A DNA stretch of 64,000 bases. Source: Pseudovirgaria hyperparasitica (taxonomy: Eukaryota). The translations under genes were made by a program, and so were the position numbers. The stretch lies in the NCBI GenBank assembly GCA_010093815.1, contig ML996568.1; one strand, written 5' to 3'. Shown here in pieces: positions 1 through 60,725 of the stretch (positions are counted from its first letter, which is position 1; each line of letters begins with the position of its first letter). The notes beneath the pieces were generated by a model. It was not told the origin of the DNA, ran no database searches, and worked only from the letters and a program-made list of their open reading frames with translations.

Positions 1-784
1 CAAGCTTTCCGGCACGTTGGCGAACAAAGAGTGCTATATCACGCTTGACTAATTCTTCCTCAAGGCTGACATGAATCACTTCAGGGTCTCTCAAAGCTTG
101 CTGCAGGTACTGTTTGGGGCGACTTGTCATCAATAGCTTGATTGTTTTTGGCTTCAGAGTCCCAAGCCGGTTGAGGCGCTCCAGAAACTTGTGATCAAGT
201 TCCATCTCATCAAGAGCATCAACAATGCAGTAGGCTCTTGGCAGAGATTTCAGAGCCGTCTGGAGATGCCGCCAGAGTTCTTCGCTTGACACAGTCTCTA
301 ATGCCACTTTGCTTTCGACGTGTTCCCAAAGAGACACTTGCAGGATGGCGCTAGAAGGCAGTAGCTGAGACAACCAGTCCCGGAGGAGCGAACGGCTGGT
401 CCGATTCTTCTCTATGATATGGCGAAAGAAAAAGAATAAGACTGGAACACATTCGTCTTCGGAGAGTGATTTGACCATAGAAGCAGCGATAACGCTCTTG
501 CCAGCACCAGGTACTGCCTTAATCCAGATAGAACCATGATCGGGCGATAGATGCCACAGATCGAACTGAGTTGTTTCTCGGATCCATTCTCCGGTGCCGG
601 GAGCCTGCGAAGAAAGATGTCGCATGTATTCACTGGAACTCGCGGCGTAATCTGTGGGCTGAAGCCATGCTCGGATCTTTGTCACATCGGGTTGCTTTCT
701 CGCGACAATTTCATTAGCGACATCATCGAGATCGACTCGCTCAAAACTATCACTGCCATCGGACAATTCAGTTTCAGATGTCAT
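1..784 (-). CDS. NACHT-domain NTPase (fungal NLR-like), 5' part; runs off the window edge
   Basis: Manual translation from ATG at 784 is open to base 1: MTSETELSDG...WLQPTDY...GTGEWI...IWIKAVPGAGKS (Walker A)...VLFFFFRH...AYCIVDALDE (Walker B)...LLMTSRP. Absent from the ORF track because no stop lies in the window. Confidence 0.9.
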   Translation of the reverse strand, partial: MTSETELSDGSDSFERVDLDDVANEIVARKQPDVTKIRAWLQPTDYAASSSEYMRHLSSQAPGTGEWIRETTQFDLWHLSPDHGSIWIKAVPGAGKSVIAASMVKSLSEDECVPVLFFFFRHIIEKNRTSRSLLRDWLSQLLPSSAILQVSLWEHVESKVALETVSSEELWRHLQTALKSLPRAYCIVDALDEMELDHKFLERLNRLGTLKPKTIKLLMTSRPKQYLQQALRDPEVIHVSLEEELVKRDIALFVRQRAGKL

Positions 785-1009
785 ACTTCAGATATTCTTT
801 GATCAGATAAAGAGCGCGAATATGTAGACATGGTATTGTCCTTTGGCACCACGAAGAGTTAGTTGCCTATCACGATTAGGCAGCAGTCAGGTGGTGGGAC
901 TCCACCGAATAGAAACTGTGACTGTGGTGAGATGTATGATCATCCATGCGATCTAGCTGTTTTCGGGTGATCCACCGACCGCTCCCAGAAATGATACCTC
1001 TGCACACGT

Positions 1010-32859: not shown

Positions 32860-33110
32860 CCAGTCCACAGTTCACAGTCCACAGTTCACAGTCCACAGTT
32901 CACAGTCCACAGTTCACAGTCCACAGTTCACAGTCCACAGTTCACAGTCCACAGTNNNNNNNNNNNNNNNNNNNNNNNNNNNNNNNNNNNNNNNNTCACA
33001 GTCCACAGTTCACAGTCCACAGTTCACAGTCCACAGTTCACAGTCCACAGTTCACAGTCCACAGTTCACAGTCCACAGTTCACAGTCCACTTATATAGTC
33101 CACAGTCCAC
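32860..33110. repeat. 14-bp tandem repeat (TCACAGTCCACAGT)n spanning an assembly gap (N run 32956-32995)
   Basis: Directly visible; true array length is unknown. Confidence 0.95.
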
Positions 33111-48791: not shown

Positions 48792-49920
48792 GGGTATCCA
48801 AAGGTATTCGAACATGAAGCGTTTGACCTTCGTATGAGAATGGTCTGAATGGCGGAGCTCGTATGGCCGTTCTTCTTTCGGCTCCATTGGAATATGAATT
48901 TAAGGGGCGGGTGGACATGTGCAGTGTGGAAGCACGAGCGATGACAATACTTGGATTTGCACTAAGCTTTCAAATCAGCAATGACATCGACTATGTGTCA
49001 GCCAGCCATGGCATATGGTTGGTTATGTGCCAATCTCATGTAGTCAGAGCTCATGTTGTCTCTGAGGCACTTACACAGGGTCGAGTCTGGGCACTGGGAG
49101 CAGTACATAAACAATGTCGTCTCCCTATCGTTCAAGTATTATGAGCTTTGTACATGCCACACCGACCCTACGATGATCTGTCGCTCTTCTAAGAAAACAC
49201 CAGGCCTGGGCCGCGACAGTACTACTGTTGGGCGACCCCGCGGCGAAGAGTCCACTACCGGGGCAAATGAGCGTCCAGGAGACCTGATCGGTACATGGGC
49301 AAATGGACTGAAAGTCTCAGGGGGGAGTTCAAGAGGAATGTACTCTTTGTCTGGAGCGCTATGGAAATAATTCGAAGACTTTGCGGACGTATTTCCACTC
49401 AGACTGCATGCTGGAGGGAAATCTGCCAAAACTATACAGCTAACAGTACTAGTAAGATGCAGGGGCTTGAACCATATCGAACAATCATCGCGGGCAGAGA
49501 TCTGTCTACTTCGTAGTGAAAGAATCCGCATTGGGCTACCTGACAAAAATCAGAAACCTCAGCATAGGACGCGATTGGGGATATGAAACCGTATGATCTC
49601 AAGGGGTAGTTGCATAGAGGTCGGTGAAAATGAATCTCGACTTTGAAGCTGATCGCCTAGGGTGGGATAGCTCTTGAATTGAAAAAGAATAGAGAGTGGG
49701 GAAGGTATGCATGTTGTTCCTCAGCCCAGCATCTATAGACCATCTCGAGAAGTCCCACACCGAATCGCGGTGCTTACGCTCGACATTCACTTGACAAGCC
49801 TCCGTGGTTTTGAAAGAGCTAAAGCTCTAGCATCGGAGAGGACCGAACATCGGGCGCCAAGCTTTCCCATCCATGTAACTATGGATAGGCACTACGCGCG
49901 ACGCTTGGCCGGTCGCGGGT

Positions 49921-50870
49921 TCATGTCCTTGTATACACTGCGTCGCGGTCGACCTGCTGCCAAACCAACGTTAGGGAGCTTCCTCTGGGGCGACCTCGTC
50001 GCTTGGCTGGTGGTTTACTGACGTCAACGTCTTGGTCATCGTTCTGGTCGACTTGCGGCATCTTATCGGCGGCTGGTGCGCTTGTCGGTTCGTGGAAAGC
50101 TACGGCGGCCTCCCCTTGTGCGTTATTTGAGTCGTCTTCTGGGAGAACCAGCTTTACGACCTTTTTGCAAGTCTTGCAATACAGAGGTCCATTTGGGAGT
50201 AGTTCGGTTAGACAAGGTTCGCACCATTCGTGCCCACAGGTGGCCATAGTAGCGTCCAGAGATGGGCATATACAATCCGAATCTGTGCAATCTCAATCTG
50301 GGCCAAAATTTTAATAGAGAATACAAGCTCAATCCACGCCTCAAAATGATTGCCAAGACGGTATAATCTCAATCCGATTGGTTAGATTAATTGTATTAGA
50401 TTAAATAAAGTAGGATATATACCTATATATAGCCGCGGGCCCTATCTTAGGCCATATTTAGGCATTATTTCTGCCTAAGGCTACTATATTAGAGCCTAAG
50501 GCTAAAGTATAGGCCTTAGGCAGAAATAATGCCTAAATATGGCCTAAGATAGGGCCCGCGGCTATACATAGGTATATACCCTACTTTATTTAATCTAATA
50601 CAATCAATCTCAATCCCTTAGTATAGATTCTAAGCTTAATCCGTACTTTTAGAGTGACTAATCATACAATCCTAATCTAGGACCTTGGATTGTATCCGAT
50701 TGTATATGCTCACGTCTGGTAGCGTCCTCGAGCCCAAAACCACAATGTCGACAGATGTCTTGGTGGTATTTTACCATCTGTTGTAGTACTGACTCCTTAG
50801 CATAGAGCTTGCACTTGGCGTCATGGGTCCGATTCGGGCACTCCCATACAGTGTATTGGTCATAAAGCAT
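49921..50870 (-). pseudogene. RING-HC (C3HC4) finger gene interrupted by a transposon insertion (possibly rescued by splicing)
   Basis: Removing 50257-50718 and one TSD copy joins two ORFs into DICRHCGFGLEDATMATCGHEWCEPCLTELLPNGPLYCKTC; the C-terminus has an AT-hook-like KRRGRPR. Confidence 0.8.
50257..50718. mobile_element. Non-autonomous hAT-like DNA transposon (MITE), 462 bp
   Basis: 8-bp TSD GTAGCGTC at 50249-50256 and 50719-50726. Imperfect TIRs CAGAGATGGGCATATACAATC and (rc) CAGACGTGAGCATATACAATC. Subterminal CAATC repeats. Internal inverted repeat 50385-50480 / 50514-50609. Confidence 0.9.
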
Positions 50871-51039
50871 GCCATTTTCTATGTACGTGTACGGTCGGTT
50901 GTATATATACACCCGACCGGTGCGTAGCTACTGCCTACATTAATTATACATGTTGTTTGCTACTGCCGTAGCCGTAACACCCACCAGCACCAGCATTACC
51001 AGCACGAGCACGTGCACGCGTATCATCAGCACGAGTAGG

Positions 51040-53649
51040 GGTACTATCAAGATATGGGAAGACCGCTGTAGCAGCTTTCCCTAGCTCTCTAGAAGACGAA
51101 GCTCACGTAAAGAATATTCTACTCTCGATACAACGAGATCCGAAGAGCTTCTGGGAAAATGTTCTTATTGGAAGTGGGAGGCCGGACAGCAATGACGTAC
51201 GTCGAGCCGAGATACTAGAGCGGCTGGCCCAAGACGTTCGGAACACGGGCGCACGTCAAGCAGTTACACTCCTGATTCTTGCAACTGATACTAAGCCTGC
51301 TACCGGATTTGTTTGAGCTTTTACTGGGAAGTCTGGGCAGTTGAAGCAGGCCGAACGAAAGGTGTTAAGAGCTAAGAATACATGCGAAAAGAAAGCCATG
51401 GTCGACGAAAATCTTAAGCGAAAGTGTGGCGATAGATTCGCGAAACTTGGTGTAGCAGGCACGGTGTTTGTTAGTTGTAAATGAGCAGCATCATCCTCAT
51501 GGGAGCGCCTGACTGACGAAGAATTCACCTCCCTGCGAGTTAAAGTCGAATCGAGATTAGCCCTGCTTGATCTCCCGGAAACTAGAGATTCTCTTGGGCC
51601 ACTTACCGATGCTTTCTGGGGCGTTCATCAATCTATTGCTGCTGTTCATGGAGAGCTCGGGAATTCTGACCACGCGTCGTCAGCGGATCGATCAATCACT
51701 TGCACAACAGAGCCACAAAATCCTCGCCCGGTAGCAGGTACCGGGGTCACCTTTGATTTCAGCCTCACAGCGTCCCCTGGCGTTATGAACAGTTCCGCAA
51801 ACTTCAGTCGTCCGCCCCTTGATGAATCATGTTCTAGACTTCCAGAGCATTCTAACGACACCGTCAGGCGGGACGTTGCCGTGAGTGATGATATGCCTAT
51901 TGACGGATACCACAGTGGCAGCAATCTCGATTCCGTCGCACCTAACCTGACAGAAGATGCATTGGACCCCCCTGTTACCAACGTTAATCCTGAGTCTACC
52001 TCCCTCGAGAGATTGGGCTCTGGAACCGACGATCACTCGCAATTGAGCGGCAAGAGTTTGCCTACCCCGGGACTCCTTGATATCCGCGCTTCGAAGTCAT
52101 CCGGGAGTACCTCTTTGTCACTTCAACACACTTATGATTCTTCTGATATAGGGTCGGTACACACATCACCTGACAAGTCACTCTCGAACGAAGCAGAATG
52201 TAGCTCCGGAACATCCCAAAAGAATTTTGGCTTGAAAAAGCTCAATAATTCGAAGCTCCATTACATTGGTGCGCAGATTGTTGATCCGCGAATACCAAGC
52301 GACACTTTTAGCGGATTAAAACGACTTCGAACGAACGCTAATGGAAGTTCCTTAATATCACCAGAGAGCTTCACGAATAGATGTATGGAATATCCTCAAT
52401 CGAACTTACCTGACCGAAATGGGATGCAACATACAGGCGGTCTGACCAGACTTAAGTCGTTCGCTCCTAACCCAGACCAGCTTACGTGGTCCACCAACGC
52501 TGTTGCAAGTCGAACTCGGTTCGAGGACAATTCTATATCGAACGAAGAATGGATAGAAAGCACCCTTCCACCGTCGACATCGCAACAAGGCCCCTGGGCC
52601 TCCTCTTACCCTTTCCTCCAGGCTCCTGTAGTCATGCCATACGAGTCACCAATCTTCATACACGTCCAGGAGGGTAATATCGCGGAATCGATGAAGCTCA
52701 TCACTTCGGGTCTCGTATCGATTCATTCGGTCGATCCTTATGGACTCGGTCTTCTTTACGTAAGTTAGCGCCACGGTGTAAAGCCTTGTGTGGACGCTAA
52801 CCTTGATAGTATGCTGCATACTACTGCTTGCATAACTGTGATCTCAGAACATCGCTTCAAATATGTCATAGTCTCCTGAAGGCTGGTGCAGACGCTACTT
52901 ACCCCGATGATATTGGAAAGTAAGTTAGCTACATGCTATAAATCTTTTTAAGGTAGCTTACGGTCTTAAGTACTCCATTGTACACATCTGTAGATAATGT
53001 TCTCGCATTGAGAGCGCAAGCCCTCATAAGTCCAAAAATGGCAAGGAAAAGTATTCAACTGATCGGCAAAATATTCAATACGCCAACTCATGAACTCTGC
53101 ACGAGCTACCACAGTTCAAGACAGTTTTCCCCTCAGCATAAGGCACTTTTGGCGTTACCATGGGCATCAACTCAAGAATGCAATCTAGAGCGGACGCTTC
53201 CTCAAATTCCTCACAACGCAAGAATGGCAGAGATAGATGACACGGATTGCACAGGTAGAAGTGCATTGGCATGGGCAGTCGAATACGGCTGGCCAGAAGC
53301 AGTGGAAACTTTATTACGTTTGGGAGCTGATGTACGTCAAACACGGCAGTCTGGAAAGCGCGTTATGCCTCTGTTACATCTTGCGATTGCAGGACCTAGG
53401 AAATCAGAAACGAACAGAATTGCCGTCACCCAGATCCTCCTGCAAGGCGGGGCCGACATCAATGCCAGGGATGACGGGCAATGGACCCCACTGCATGTAG
53501 CCGCATCTTGGGGCTTGGAAGGGGTAGTCAAAGGACTACTCCAATCTACTCATGGCACTGCAGATGTCGGAGCTCTTGATAGTTACGGTCATACAGCCCG
53601 CGATATTGCCTTAGGGGCAGGATTTACTGGTTCTATGTTATGTTTTTAA
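51040..53649 (+). pseudogene. Ankyrin-repeat protein; the upstream frame has two in-frame TGA stops; 2 introns near the 3' end
   Basis: One frame continues from ~51040 into the 51785 ORF except for TGA at 51314 and 51482. Ankyrin motifs GRSALAWAV, PLLHLAI, QWTPLHVAA, GHTARDIA. A shorter product from ATG 51785 is possible. Confidence 0.6.
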
Positions 53650-53790
53650 TGCCTGAAGCAGCCGATGCCAGGTATCATATGTAAGATTAGAAGTATCTGA
53701 TGTAATCAATCCACATGATACTGGGCAACCCCTCTACCCGGCAATTTGTATATACGTCCCATCAGCAGCATCCTCGACGCGGATTCAGAA

Positions 53791-54549
53791 ATGTATGAAA
53801 AGCACTTCATTCCTCTAGAGTCTGACCTGCAGGTTTCCAACGAGCTCCTACGGGATTTAGGGGTGCGGACGAGTCTACGGTTTGAAGATGTTATGACTCT
53901 AGATAATCCGCTACTACTACCAACCTCAGCCTTGGCGCTAATTTTAATCTTTCCTACATCAGAAACATACGAATGTCGAAAATCCAGGGAGGAAGCATCC
54001 TCCAAAGAGGACGATATCTCGGACACTGGCTTGATATGGTTTCGACAAAGCATCAATAACGCTTGTGGTCTCTACGCCATTCTTCACGCAATGTATAATA
54101 GCGGAGCGAAGCATCTAATGTGTAAGCTTCTATGATTTCATGTTGATAGGAGCTGACAAGCAGTAGTACCTGAATCATTGTTGGCCAATCTACTAGGTAA
54201 CCCCTTACAGCTGACCCAACAACAGCGCTGCAAGGCCCTAGAACAGTCTAAGGAGCTTGAAGATGTCTACACTAAGGCAGCTTTACAAGGTTCATCGACA
54301 CCCCCAATCAATCCTCAAGAAGAGGTCGACTATCACTTCATAACATTCGTCAAGGACTCAGACGGCCATGTATTTGAGCTGGACGGAGATAGGAAATGCC
54401 CGTTGAACAAGAATATTGTGACAAGTCCTAACGAGGACATGCTTTCTGAACAAGTCCGTACGATGATTCGAAACTTCATTGATCAAGAAGAGGGCAGGAG
54501 TGATGGATTTTCACTCATGGCCCTTGTAGAACAACCTGAAGGAGGTTAG
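53791..54549 (+). CDS. Ubiquitin C-terminal hydrolase (peptidase C12, UCH-L3/Yuh1-like); intron 54122-54165
   Basis: FIPLESD; ALILIFP; WFRQSINNACGLYAILH (Gln, Cys); YHFITFV (His); FELDG (Asp); FSLMAL. Confidence 0.9.
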
Positions 54550-55233
54550 CGACTGGATTACAAACTTTGTGATCGCTGTCTTCATCCTCGCTCTTATCTG
54601 TTAAAAGCAGTCGCAACACTAGTACTGCCCCATACCACAGAAATACATCCCTAGCACACCGATGAAATCTCGGTCGTGCTCCGTCTAATGTCAAGACCAC
54701 ACGTACGGTAGCATGATGGGACAAAAATGCTTCTCATGCAACTCTGCACAAATTTTGCTGCGGATACCTGGCCATCAACGCAGCATGTCTACCAACATTC
54801 TTTAGACAGCAAAGGTGCGACCCAATTAGCGGACGAATGGAAGCCCTCTATGCATTACTGCACCGTTCCCACCCCGAGACTCTGGTGCAACGTGAGGACT
54901 ACACCTCCGCGAAGGATCAGCACATTGGCTGGGCTTATGGTGATGCTTCTTTCTTGTCTTCGGCATCTTCGATGGAGAAGAGCGTGCTCGTTTTTTTGCG
55001 TCGCCTCGCGTTCAGCAAGATATATCAAGATGCAAGGTGACATTGCGAAGTCTGAAAAGCCGCACAGAATTTGCCTTGCTATGTTGAAAGAGAATGACTA
55101 TTTGCTGCGGGACCTATAGAACGCCTCTGTCATAGGAAATCTTAAAGAGTGTCAAACACGTCGGTCAGCTATACTTGGGTTGTAGTACTTTTGTGTTCCG
55201 TGTCTAGCAAGAAAAGTCTTATTCTTCTTGCCT

Positions 55234-56192
55234 TCAACTCATGCTAATACTTTGAATATCATTTTGACGCCCTTCGAAATCCTCTAGAATGTGAGCTACT
55301 TCTTCGTGGTTGCGTTGTACAGCCCAGAACCGTGCTGTTTTGCCCTTACTATCCAGTTTGAGAGGATCAGCACCTTTCTCCAGCAAAAGCATAACAATCT
55401 CCGTCTTCCCAAACTCTGCCGCCCGGTGGAGCGGAGTACCTAGACCAAAAGGGACACGCTCCCGATAGGTTGTCAGATCATCTTCGTATTTGATCTTATT
55501 GACAGGTGCACCACAGTCCACAAGTCTGCGCACCAGCTCAAGAGCACCCGGCTTAGCCCTAAGGACAGCGTGGTGGAGAAGCTGACCCTGTCGAACGTCT
55601 GCGCCCCGCGAGAACAGGTACTCGATCGTTTCAAGAGAAGCGGTATACATTGCTTGCGATGTCGGGGTCATGTCCCAGGCACAGCGGCGATTGGGATCTG
55701 CATGGTGATCAAGAAACCACTCTACCATGTCATGATCGCCGGTACGGAGAGCTATGCTGGTATACCATGAGCAGAACAATTGACTTGGAGTGATTGGGAA
55801 GTGTATCCCACGCACCTCAACGCAGGAGGTTCAATCCTATGCATAGGCTGGTTTATGCCCCATCCATACTGAAGAAAGAGCTCCAGTATTTCCTTTGCGT
55901 GTTCTCGCACAGCAAGCTCAATAGGAAGCCCTATATGTGCAACATTTTTGTCGAGTAGAAACCGCGCCATCTCGAGATCGTGTTTCTCGACAGCGGCAGC
56001 AAGAGAATATGATAACCAGGCTGGGTTTGCATCGGGATGCCGACGGAAGAGTTGTTCGACTTGGTGCCTTACTTCCGTGATATCGCCCTTCAGGGCTGCT
56101 TCATAGCATGATTTCACTTCTTGCGGTCTTTTATATAATGGCTGATCAGAGCGCATCGGTGAAGGCGTAAAGGCTAGGACCTCTTCTTGCAT
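55234..56192 (-). CDS. Ankyrin-repeat protein; one intron near 55760-55815
   Basis: Two ORFs joined by a GT..AG intron; LLHHAV, GTPLHRAAEFGK..IV.LLLEKGADP...GKTA. Confidence 0.8.
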
Positions 56193-56699
56193 GTTGATTG
56201 ATGAGATGGTGGTGAGCGCGAGAGTGGGATATTATTTCTGGGCAAGTAGGTATTCATCCTATCGTTTCGCTGATTAAGCGCCAGACACGGTGGTGGTGCA
56301 AGAAGCGACTGGGATGCAACTTAACGGCGTGTAGGGAGGGTCTACTGTCTGCACAAGTCTCCGATAGATGAGTGGGGGTACTCCGTACCGTGGCTGGCCT
56401 GGTGAGGCTGGGACGAAGTAGAGAATGCTGGTATCAGTTATGGAAGAATTTGTTTACAATAGAAGGTAATGCTTGTAGGCTCATTGTCGAGCATGGAATA
56501 TGTGATTCTCAAGTCTATATCTCCTTGATCTCCGAGCGCATTATAGCTGGTTTTGAGAACGATTTGGAGCTGTTTCAATTAAAATTTTACTTGTCAAACT
56601 GAATGTCTTCCCGGAGGCTGCTCCTCGCTCTGTTTGGCCCAGTGATAGTCCAAGTCAAACCATAAATCAGTCGGTAGCAGTCTTGTTCGTCTTACTTTT

Positions 56700-57480
56700 G
56701 CTATCGACTTTGATCACGGCTACCTATCCATCTGAAATGGATCCATCAGAACCCGTATCTGCTGCTGTGACAGAGCTCACATTTGATTCAGTTCCGAGGT
56801 CGTATTCTTTGATCACAGTGTCTATCTCCATGTCCGTAAGACTGAAGAACTCTTCTTTTTCGCGTTTTTCATCTCGTCCAGAGTTCGGAGAAATAGGGGA
56901 CCTAAGAGATCTTCCTGTAAGAGACAGAGTCCCCGTCTTACTTGATGACCACAGACGGAAAATAAGCAACGCAATCATGGACGAAAGGTTATGTTAGGGT
57001 TGCGCTAGTTATGAGGTATAGTAATGTGTTGGTATCATCAATGAGTTTCTGAAGCCTGATCCATCGTTATGCCATACACCTTTTTCGTTGGTTTCTCTAG
57101 TGGCATTTCTAAGTCCTCTCTGAGAGCAATGACATAGTCGTCGCTGTTTTCGACATCGTCGTCTTCGCCATCGTCCACCCCTTCCATGTCCTCATCGTCG
57201 TCGACCCTATCGGCAGCCTCGGGCACCGTAAAGTGCTTGTCTACCTGGTCGTAACAGAACTCGTGCGGGCCCTCGCACGGGATGTTGAACTTTTCAGCAA
57301 TACAAGGAACTAGCTCCACGTATACGGCTGCACCCCTGGCTTTGAGTATGTTTTATTCTTTAATGCCAATGTCATCCACGCTGTATCCCTCAGGCAAGAC
57401 ATATGGAGGAGGTTTCACGACCAAGGAAGTGCTACTCTGACTGCTGTGGTCCTGAAATTGCCATAGGACAGGGAATCGAT
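56700..57480 (-). pseudogene. Degenerate hypothetical gene with acidic tract
   Basis: Coding-like segments (KPPPYVLPEGY...ELVPCIAEKF...DDDEDMEGVDD) interrupted by an in-frame TAA; family not recognised. Confidence 0.3.
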
Positions 57481-57789
57481 ATGGCTTCTGTGCGCGAGTT
57501 TCTTCCAAAACGCGCCCAGTTCGAAGCGGACTATTTATGCTTATTGGCGGCTCAAGGGACCCACGGCCAGGGACGTGTATAGGAGCATGTGTACACTCTG
57601 TTTCAGTATCAATAAGTTGAGCTGGGGGTAGGTTTTCGAGAAGTGTATATGCCGAGGGCGAGTACTTAGTACAACATGACTCTGCCTGTTGATTAAGAAT
57701 AATCTAGCTGTCTAATGTTCAACGAAGTAAGTTAGGGACTACCTTTATTGCCAACCCCCTCGCCCCTTTCATGTTATGTATTGTGAGGG

Positions 57790-58626
57790 GGATGGGAACT
57801 GACGCGGACAAGCGAAGAAGGCGCCCGCTTCTCTATTAGCAAAGTCTTTTCCGGCGTATGGTCCGGTGAAATCCCCCTCGAGACAGTGTACACAACCTTC
57901 AAGAAATCGGCACCGGCACCGGCACCGGTACCACCGGCAAAGCAACCAGCCGCACACCCGCGCACCACACCGCCAACACTCTCGCCGCCCACTTCGAGCT
58001 GCACATCGAACATGGCGCCATCTTCGAGACCGAGCGGCGCCGCAAAGCTGATTCCGCAGAACCACAAGGTCGCCGGCCAGCACAGTGCGCTCGCATCGCC
58101 GGGATCCTGAATCTCGCGCCTGGGTCGACATACACAGTGCCGGGGCATGTGCTGTTTAGCCTTGATATCCGCGCGGCGAGGGACGGGGTTGTTGATGAGG
58201 CGGTGCGCAATCTGCGGGCTGACTTTGAGGCTATTAACCACGGCGAGGACCGCGCGTGCGAAGCCGTGTGAGATTGAGCGGAGAGCGGATAGTGTGAGTG
58301 TGGGTACTAGCTTCCATGAGGACTGTATCGCGTATGTGCGGCAGAGCGTGGAGAGCGACTTTGGCAGTGGGGAGGTGGATGGGTTGGTGAGGCAGATGGT
58401 GTCGGGGGCCGGGCATGATTCTGTATATGCGAGTAGACGCGCGCCGACCGGGATGGTTTTTGTCCCGTGTCAGGCAGGCGTGAGCCATAATCCGAGGGAG
58501 TTTTGTAAGCCGGAGTATTGTACGCTTGGGGCGCAGGTGTTGATGCACAGTGTGCTGAGGTATGATCGGTTGACGGCCATGAGTGACGTAACTCGGGGGT
58601 CTCCAGGGGTCGGCGGAGCTACCTAA
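57790..58626 (+). pseudogene. M20 amidohydrolase (beta-alanine synthase / N-carbamoylase family) pseudogene; 5'-truncated, internally deleted, frameshifted
   Basis: Motifs are split across frames: EEGARF...SGVWSGEIPLET; AAHFELHIEHG; ILNLAPGSTYTVPGHVLFSLDIR; SGAGHDSVYAS...MVFVPCQAGVSHNPREFC. Confidence 0.8.
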
Positions 58627-58901
58627 GTCTGTATGAAGTCCTTGCAAGGCTTTGTTAGTCTCTCTTCCAGATGTCACGTTGTTAATGTTGATGAATGGAA
58701 ACTCTTTCGACAAGTGGAATCAGAAGGACATCTGTTTGCTATTCTACAGATGTGCAGATAGGTGTTGCAGTGTCAACTGCCTACTCGACCGTTTCGACCC
58801 CCGGCAATTTCTGTCACTCGATCGTACACGCTACCGTCCGACCCAACTCGTTCACAGTAAAGGGAAAAGAGGAATTTCTGCTTTTCAATTAAGACATGTG
58901 T

Positions 58902-59497
58902 CTATGACGCTGGGGGAGCACCACGGCCACGGCCTGGATATAATGTCAGCTTAATAGTTCAGTAGCCTGCAGCTAGAATGCCACATACCGAATCCACCAC
59001 GGAAGCCAGGGTTGAAGTCACCCGGAGCACCACCCTCCTTGCCCTCACCAGCATCACGGCGTCTGTAGTCACCACGCTCTCTGTCACCACGCGGGCCACC
59101 ACGGCCACCCGGACGAGGACGGTCGTCACCAGACATCATGCCACGAGGAGGAGCACCGGATCGCTGTTGCTTGATGTGCGTCTGAGGAACGATTTCGGCG
59201 GGGAGGTGGAGCCATTCACGGAGATAGTCGAGACCCTCGGGGGTGAGGGTGTAGTAGTACCATTGCCAGGAGAATTGAGTCTTGAGGTAGCCGCGCGAGG
59301 TGAGTGATTGGCAGGCCTTGATCACGTATAGGTTCTTGGTGTCGATTTCGCCGTGCTTGGGCTGGTTGAAGTCCTTCTTCGCGACGAGGACGCCCTCGCG
59401 GAAGAGGTATTCGTGGATCTTCTTGCGGTCGGCCTTTGGGATGAGCCTATGTACGTCAGTATGCGCACAAACGTGCACTTGGACATCGGGCTCACAT
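58902..59497 (-). CDS. RPS10: 40S ribosomal protein S10 (eS10); 2 introns, start codon split by intron 59447-59495
   Basis: [27 protein letters not shown]...[16 protein letters not shown]...[14 protein letters not shown]-rich tail. Confidence 0.97.
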
Positions 59498-59834
59498 TTT
59501 GGCGGTGTTGGGTGGATTGGAGTTGGGAGGTTGTCGTTGCTGGGCGTCGAAGTTCAAAGTTCGTGCATCTGGTGGATTTGTGCTAAGGAAATCTTGCGTG
59601 TGAGCTCGGACCACGCTAGTAAGCGAACGACTACAGCCTTGTCAGTAAGGCAAGAACACTTCTTGGCATTTGCTTCTCCAACTTCACAGCCACGCTACCA
59701 GTACTTTCATCATATTGCTGAACTACATCAGCGACACGGCTTACGCAGCTGGGTTTCACAAAATACACAATCGCTTGGACGACTTTGACTGTATACCTGA
59801 TTCATACTTCGCAACACCACTCGCTGTCGCTGCT

Positions 59835-60725
59835 ATGGCCCAACAAATAAACATCCTCCTCACCACCTTCACTGGTTTGGGCCTCCCTCCCACTCTATCT
59901 TTCGCAGTATCATCCTCCACTTCCGTTGCAAAACTAGGAGAAGCTATTGCAGAGCATCTACCAGCGATCCCCTCCAGACTCATTGTTACTACCAACCGAA
60001 ATAGACAACTCGAATTCTGGTCCAGGGAAGAACCAATCACTACCCTTCTCTCATCACCAAACGATACCTTCTTACCTCTGAGACTCTCTGTACCACTATG
60101 TGGTGGCAAGGGCGGCTTTGGGTCACAGCTTCGCGCTGCTGGTGGCCGTATGTCGTCCCGCAAGAAGAGAAAGCAGGGGGATGAACATGCTTCGAGCCGC
60201 AACCTCGATGGTCGCAGACTACGCACTGTCGCTGAAGCCAAGGCTCTCGCAGAATACCTTGCGATCAAGCCCGATATGGAGAAGAAGGAGAAGGAAGAGC
60301 GTAAAAAGCGTTGGGAGAGCATCGTGGAGATGGCCGATAAGCGCGAAGAGGAGATTAGGAACGGCAGGGGAAGGCTGGATGGCAAATGGGTCGAGTCGAA
60401 AGAAGAGGCATCAGAACGGACCAGAGAAGCAGTCCTAGCTGCTATGAAAGCTGGGGATATTCAGGATGCCTTGGGCGCCAAGGAGAGTGATAGCTCTGGG
60501 GAAGCGTCTGGAACAAGTGATGGCAGCGATAGCGAAATGGAAGTGGAGGAGTCGGGTGCGTCGAGCTCTAAGCCAGTGAAATCTCAGACCGCCGCTAAGA
60601 CTTTCTTTGGCTGGGATGATGAGGATGAAGATATGAGCGATGAAGACGAGGAGGCTGATGTAGAGGAATCAGGGCTGGCAGAAGCTGCAACGTCGGATAA
60701 GGGAAAGGGAAAAGCGACTGAGTGA
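59835..60725 (+). CDS. SDE2: Sde2 (ubiquitin-fold-activated splicing/telomere factor)
   Basis: N-terminal Ubl followed by the [16 protein letters not shown] cleavage motif; [15 protein letters not shown]. Confidence 0.92.

Follow-up and report, generated by a model that had tools for sequence, protein, structure and literature searches.

The closest described system is the maize element Ds1, a non-autonomous Ac/Ds (hAT) element of about 400 bp that is spliced from exons (Wessler 1991, as excerpted in PMC5432752). According to the same excerpt, Ds1 provides three donors, all no more than 35 nt from one end, and its two acceptors lie 24 nt from the opposite end. A second relevant group are the introners, non-autonomous transposons that create introns, as set out in excerpts of PMC9860276 and PMC12130899; the latter excerpt derives them from at least half of the TE superfamilies. 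The introners of Aureococcus add 4 + 8 bp to the mRNA, that is 12 bp or four residues, and the introner-like elements of ascomycetes are described in the same extract as having neither TIRs nor TSDs (PMC9860276). Fungal MITE families are also known, for example in Epichloe (PMC3227409, in the part consulted).

Here we analyse an element that lies within a minus-strand RING gene and carries candidate splice sites close to both of its ends. Throughout, the window denotes the whole stretch of DNA analysed, 64,000 nucleotides in length.

The element and the RING gene it interrupts

The insertion is 462 bp long and is delimited by its TIRs, by a perfect target-site duplication and by the points at which contigs of other copies depart from it. 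The features of the element are as follows.

50257..50718, minus strand (orientation of the interrupted gene): non-autonomous hAT-like element (MITE), placed by TIRs, TSD and contig breaks; 462 bp
50719..50726, minus strand: target-site duplication (TSD), upstream copy GACGCTAC, identical to 50249-50256
50249..50256, minus strand: target-site duplication, downstream copy GACGCTAC, 8/8 positions matching the other copy
50695..50718, minus strand: 5' TIR in gene orientation, starting CAGAC, then the donor-like GTGAGC
50257..50280, minus strand: 3' TIR in gene orientation, differing from the other TIR at 4 of 24 positions in the present copy
50384-50492 and 50502-50610, no strand assigned: internal palindrome of two 109-nt arms, 93% complementary, with a 9-nt spacer

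Both 24-nt TIRs start with CAGA and they match at 20 of 24 positions; the repeat search gave the pair as 25 nt and 84% complementary, one TSD base being included. A subterminal 14-nt motif (repeat family D1) occurs in five copies within the element, and coding capacity is nil, the longest wholly internal ORFs being 30-33 aa. The 8-bp TSD, the short CAG-initial TIRs, the subterminal repeats, the small non-coding body and the multiple copies are all hallmarks of hAT elements, whose TIR consensus starts (C/T)A(G/A). We infer the superfamily from these features, an 8-bp TSD being found in some other superfamilies too. The initial annotation had described a hAT-type MITE at 50249..50726; this span is the element together with both TSD copies, and a non-autonomous DNA transposon with testable hAT features (8-bp TSD, 24-nt TIRs, many copies) is what we find there. 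A second match to the TIR was absent from the rest of the window, and none of the 52 window ORFs of at least 170 aa contains a transposase domain. The predicted fold of the element has an energy of -256 kcal/mol (z = -25.5). Direct repeats AATCTCAATCC at 50365-50375 and 50606-50616, 241 nt apart, bound the palindromic core (50364-50604), and family members without precisely this segment occur among DNA and RNA contigs. The 462-bp copy is thus a short MITE whose foldback core was nested into it or expanded, or else the parent from which deletion derivatives arose.

The gene is divided by the element into two open parts, the second of which contains an intron of its own.

50721..50870, minus strand: N-terminal 50 codons of the RING gene from the ATG, with Cys1-x2-Cys2; without a Pfam match of its own
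49921..50247, minus strand: C-terminal 108 codons and stop of the RING gene (protein P0001), with Cys3-His-Cys4..Cys7; Pfam zf-C3HC4
49957..50022, minus strand: 66-nt in-frame intron in the 3' part of the RING ORF, GTCAGT...CTAAC...CAG, seen in an X3 contig

The ATG lies at 50870 and the stop at 49923-49921, and after the insert the frame resumes as Cys-x-His-x2-Cys-x2-Cys...Cys-x2-Cys. Excising 470 nt in silico, which recreates the empty site, gives a single minus-strand ORF of 159 codons, and its product fits the C3HC4 RING spacing at residues 40-78 with all eight ligands (pattern C-x2-C-x(9-39)-C-x(1-3)-H-x(2-3)-C-x2-C-x(4-48)-C-x2-C). In the present sequence the frame stops at codon 70, about 20 codons inside the element. 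Pfam zf-C3HC4 (PF00097) matches the downstream half at 22.4 bits against a cut-off of 21, covering profile positions 15-40 of 40, which indicates that the first third of the RING domain lies on the other side of the insertion. The insertion point falls between Cys2 and Cys3, separating Cys1 and Cys2 from the other six zinc ligands; on this placement, in the loop between the second and third cysteines, the ORF pattern and the Pfam match agree with the initial annotation.

A single X3 contig of low depth (3.5) joins 49956 to 50023 with CT..AC ends on the plus strand, removing the 66-nt intron, whose CTAAC lies 14 nt from its end. By this one joint, transcription and processing of the gene's 3' part are shown to follow the orientation of the ORF. 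As the intron is in frame and free of stops, splicing and retention would give two protein forms, the retained form having 22 extra residues with a basic, AT-hook-like Arg-Gly-Arg-Pro stretch. Upstream of the gene, a 28-nt near-perfect palindrome centred on TATATA (50892-50919) lies 22-49 nt before the ATG and may be a core-promoter feature.

Searches for homologues of the RING protein returned the query itself only, both in a word-based search (59-189 aa) and with phmmer against 1.84 billion representatives at E <= 0.001; the Atlas gave generic RING look-alikes below 0.9, which serve as leads only. Judged by these sequence searches, the gene is a small lineage-specific orphan. Since it has no homologue besides itself, there is no sign of a strong constraint that would demand rescue of the interrupted gene.

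Copies of the element in four sequencing runs

Four public runs (X1-X4, from two samples) carry the stretch, and their contigs were aligned on positions 49000-60000. X1 and X2 were taken as DNA, as their depth is flat (about 273 and 315) and they are without intron joints. X3 and X4, whose run type is not on record, were taken as RNA from their intron joints and their uneven depth, which ranges from about 14 to 20868 with the peak over RPS10. Joints with GT..AG or CT..AC ends occur at eight places, in X3 and X4 only.

Contigs of all four runs leave the element exactly at 50256/50257 and 50718/50719 and pass into differing flanks. On these 11 kb, 94 (X1) and 345 (X2) DNA contigs were aligned; the summed depth in the bin 50468-50834 was 5606 and 13914, respectively, against flanks of about 273 and 315, and at position 50665 it reached 25107 and 60365. 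Over the element the summed depth, which does not equal copy number, is 20-90 times that of the flanks. The many flanks at fixed boundaries, together with this excess, establish that the element belongs to a real multi-copy family; the other copies that the initial annotation had proposed to look for are thus present, with the same ends and differing flanks, in the contigs of the four runs.

The possibility that the insertion is an assembly artefact was rejected, because DNA contigs of single-copy depth run into the element from each of the unique flanks, and the TSD is perfect. These contigs (X1 records 3 and 6; X2 records 10 and 11) enter the element by 30 and 28 letters and do not reach the 31 letters set as the threshold for 'bridging'; such short entry is expected of k-mer contigs at a repeat.

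Joints that skip 241, 242 or 319 nt across the palindrome are found among DNA and RNA contigs, indicating that shorter family members of about 220 bp exist and that many members are without the palindrome. The form with the 241-nt skip was seen in RNA contigs only (depth 101 and 58), and its 9 mismatches to the present copy indicate that it comes from another locus. In X1 and X2, loose ends at 50266 reveal CAGACGTGA at the opposite end of other copies as well; the donor-like motif is therefore a part of the TIR consensus. Furthermore, among the loose ends listed, RNA contigs of other copies cross the GTGAGC-bearing end unbroken into their flanks: at least eight X3 and at least two X4 contigs depart at 50716-50720, and one X4 contig departs at 50709. 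Retention of copies in RNA, in one orientation or the other, is thus frequent.

A metagenome scan with the 15-nt TIR core gave 118 loci with one match each, and blastn with the whole element extended none of them past 25 nt; these loci were accordingly set aside as chance matches. A literature search with the TIR strings gave no relevant match among those listed, all of which are unrelated (primers and the like).

The contigs also carry a signal around the gene itself. In X1 and X2, one contig each of single-copy depth (296 and 313) leads from 50979 back to 49888 by way of 40 other letters. The stretch 50864-50979 stands at about twice the usual depth with a variant at 50891, and in X3 and X4 one contig each fits up to 49887 and then continues with 255 unlike letters. 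The breakpoints 49887/49888 and 50979/50980 bracket precisely the RING gene with its MITE, a unit of 1092 bp whose borders lie 109 nt before the ATG and 33 nt beyond the stop. The arrangement of the window is nevertheless present in a DNA contig as well, which covers 49846-49939. A second copy of this unit, partial or head-to-tail, may exist elsewhere. Neither the 40-letter linker nor the RNA loose end at 49887 has a match in the window, and the window holds no paralogue of the flanks of the RING gene.

As to the surroundings, a run of 40 N at 32956-32995 marks an assembly gap or a masked stretch. An NPHP3_N/NACHT ORF occupies 5-787 (minus strand), and ankyrin-repeat ORFs lie at 52957-53646 (plus) and 55237-55830 (minus), a mix of NACHT and ankyrin ORFs typical of the NLR-like genes of Pezizomycotina. 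Housekeeping neighbours include isocitrate/isopropylmalate dehydrogenase, a Byr2/Ste11-type kinase, RPS10, SDE2 and Vps39.

Candidate splice sites and the introns of the host

Two sites within the element could serve as the borders of an intron.

50708..50713, minus strand: candidate 5' splice site GTGAGC, 5 nt inside the element; the same hexamer as in the RPS10 intron
50283..50290, minus strand: candidate 3' splice site TTGCACAG, 26 nt from the element end; no CTNAN within 99 nt upstream

Their use would remove 431 nt (50713-50283) and leave 39 nt, namely 31 of the element and 8 of the TSD. The predicted product is open to the natural stop; it retains the RING pattern and has 24 residues instead of 11 in the Cys2-Cys3 loop. 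GTGAGC also opens the RPS10 intron (59447-59495, minus strand), which is spliced in X3 and X4, so that the hexamer is a working donor in this organism. The initial annotation had named this donor and its use by RPS10, the CAG acceptor ending at 50283, the 431-nt size and the in-frame remainder of 39 nt with 13 extra residues, and each of these points is borne out by a check on the minus strand, by the in-silico product and by the RPS10 joints.

Among 90 GT-AG pairs around the element, ten are in frame and free of stops, and the pair described here is the one that is consensus-like at both ends. When the element was shuffled by dinucleotides, such a consensus-like in-frame pair arose in 35 of 2000 cases, and a consensus-like donor within the first 40 nt in 178 of 2000; the criteria were fixed post hoc, after the case had been seen, and these figures overstate its unusualness. 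The transposon is more than chance, as contigs of four runs part at its exact borders into many flanks; the splice-site pair is so only mildly. The 31 retained letters of the element are open in all three frames and, as 31 + 8 = 39 is divisible by three, the candidate splicing would be frame-neutral at any insertion phase. In the flipped orientation the present copy has no in-frame GT-AG pair.

We consider it unlikely that the insertion is mitigated by leaky splicing, in which a fraction of transcripts would be joined from GTGAGC to CAG, as in Ds1, and would retain 39 nt encoding 13 extra loop residues. The same observations that favour such splicing count against plain disruption. The sites exist, their product is open with the RING pattern kept, and a pair that is consensus-like at both ends and in frame is uncommon by chance under the post-hoc criteria above. 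The donor hexamer is that of a nearby, highly expressed gene, and in the modelled fold donor and acceptor would be placed near each other by the hairpin. Neither half of the ORF has decayed, which fits a very recent insertion and, equally, a function kept through splicing. The locus is also not silent, its 3' part being transcribed and spliced from the minus strand. By analogy, the splicing of Ds1, a hAT element of similar size, from exons offers a precedent (excerpt of PMC5432752), as do the 4 + 8 bp left by Aureococcus introners (excerpt of PMC9860276).

Against leaky splicing stands the comparison with the introns that this fungus is seen to remove. The eight RNA-verified introns in the window are 45-66 nt long, and all eight contain a CTNAN branch motif whose A precedes the 3' splice site by 7-25 nt. 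The candidate intron, at 431 nt, is 6.5 times as long as the longest of them, and its nearest CTNAN (CTAAC) lies 99 nt upstream of the acceptor; it has neither the length nor the branch-site geometry of the host type. With that CTAAC, the best branch site, use of the first AG downstream would remove 346 nt and shift the frame. The donor is also shared by shorter cryptic introns, for example of 79 or 84 nt, in which branch motif and acceptor are normally spaced; these would compete and would leave stops in the message. The donor is moreover predicted to be sequestered, five of its six bases pairing with the 3' TIR in the TIR-TIR stem of the minimum free energy fold. The 13 added residues would include two cysteines adjoining the zinc ligands.

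Among the 12 joints listed, none is 50282/50714; contig cover of the gene is thin in X3 and X4, and contigs show presence rather than absence. With the same limit on what contigs show, the empty-site joint (a 470-nt skip) is not among the joints listed for any of the four runs. The X3 depth for the bin 50835-51201 comes from one contig at 51081-51635, and the first 36 nt of the CDS fall in a gap in X3 cover. Downstream of the RING gene, a 50-nt intron at 49540-49589 (minus strand), in a transcript without an obvious ORF, is spliced in one X4 contig (depth 6.4) and retained in an X3 contig; its donor, GTTTCA, is unusual.

Of the account given by the initial annotation, the transposon, the RING gene, the potential splice sites and all coordinates stand. 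Its further proposal, that intron gain or a self-mitigating insertion is in progress, is not supported in view of the intron length (431 against 45-66 nt), the branch motif 99 nt away and the paired donor.

Disruption, its alternatives and known systems

The locus is probably explained by the ordinary disruption of an orphan RING gene through insertion of a MITE. One copy from a non-autonomous hAT-like family with many members would have transposed into a coding exon of the minus-strand gene and duplicated 8 bp of the target, parting Cys1 and Cys2 from the remaining zinc ligands. Read-through translation would end some 20 codons into the element, and the allele is for this reason most likely null or a severe hypomorph. 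Since GTGAGC is part of the TIR of the family, its first role would probably be in transposition and not in splicing. The in-frame GT..AG pair is then probably a by-product, used inefficiently, rarely if at all.

A different outcome, which we regard as improbable, is that the allele makes a truncated product from a new start, the ATG at 50247-50245, one base past the downstream TSD copy, on transcripts that begin within the element or traverse it. From there the ORF is open to the natural stop, the resulting 108-aa ORF is present as a called protein in public protein collections, and the 3' part of the gene is seen spliced in X3 RNA. The product would be a RING fragment with six of the eight ligands, and a RING without Cys1 and Cys2 should not fold around the first zinc of the cross-brace; the Atlas model of the fragment is poor (pLDDT 0.56, pTM 0.21).

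Similarly improbable is a hAT-derived introner of a Pezizomycotina fungus, in which the TIR would supply a working donor at 5 nt from one end, the acceptor would lie 26 nt from the other, the 39-nt remainder would be frame-neutral and the hairpin would assist the splicing of 431 nt in a host with introns of about 50 nt. Such an element, still adding 13 residues, would be the first introner of the TIR/TSD type in ascomycetes.

Least probable of all is that the MITE family as a whole is adapted for splicing and creates introns in many genes of the fungus: the donor motif does belong to the TIR consensus, the remainder (31 + 8 = 39) is open in three frames, RNA contigs are abundant (X3 depth over the element up to about 280, against 14-130 for neighbouring genes) and introners of many TIR superfamilies are known (PMC12130899, as excerpted), but RNA contigs cross the element end unbroken, so that copies are often retained, the flipped orientation of the present copy is without an in-frame pair, and the element is far longer than host introns.

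What the locus documents at present is a transcribed, multi-copy hAT-like MITE family, undescribed as far as its TIR strings were compared with the text of the literature, with shorter members that are without the palindromic core, and an orphan RING gene cleanly disrupted by an insertion. For annotation, the 108-aa gene call is a fragment. Were the splice real, this would be a datable case, at a single locus of a filamentous ascomycete, of an intron arising from a DNA transposon, it would contrast with the ascomycete introner-like elements described as free of TIRs and TSDs (PMC9860276, in the extract used), and the limits on intron size in this host would make the role of the hairpin testable. 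Even so, transposon splicing from exons is already known from maize Ds1 and from introners, and the proposed mechanism is of a known kind. The finding is unsurprising to specialists, the splicing of hAT elements from exons having been known since the work on maize Ds.

Compared with Ds1 as described in the excerpted source, the element is likewise of the non-autonomous hAT type, of about 400-460 bp, with an 8-bp TSD and inserted in an exon. The distances of the splice sites are similar, the candidate sites here lying 5 and 26 nt from the ends, and imperfect removal leaves letters of element and TSD in the mRNA, which in the present case is a prediction. In contrast to Ds1, whose splicing has been shown by experiment, the candidate sites here are predicted from the DNA, and the host is a filamentous fungus with introns of 45-66 nt and not a plant with long ones; the two elements share no sequence similarity, and the present one has no known autonomous partner.

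The resemblance to introners, as these appear in the excerpts, is that of a non-autonomous TIR/TSD element with GT..AG sites, at the level of sequence. What defines introners is that many copies are spliced within genes and that their size is one the host can splice, whereas here a single copy is known by its letters. The interrupted gene resembles the C3HC4 RING proteins (PF00097) in the eight-ligand spacing of the reconstituted ORF and in a C-terminal half that scores above the Pfam cut-off, and differs from them in being an orphan whose domain is physically split by an element. Finally, the family is like fungal MITEs such as those of Epichloe (PMC3227409, in the part consulted) in consisting of short, multi-copy, non-coding TIR elements of Pezizomycotina that often lie in or near genes.
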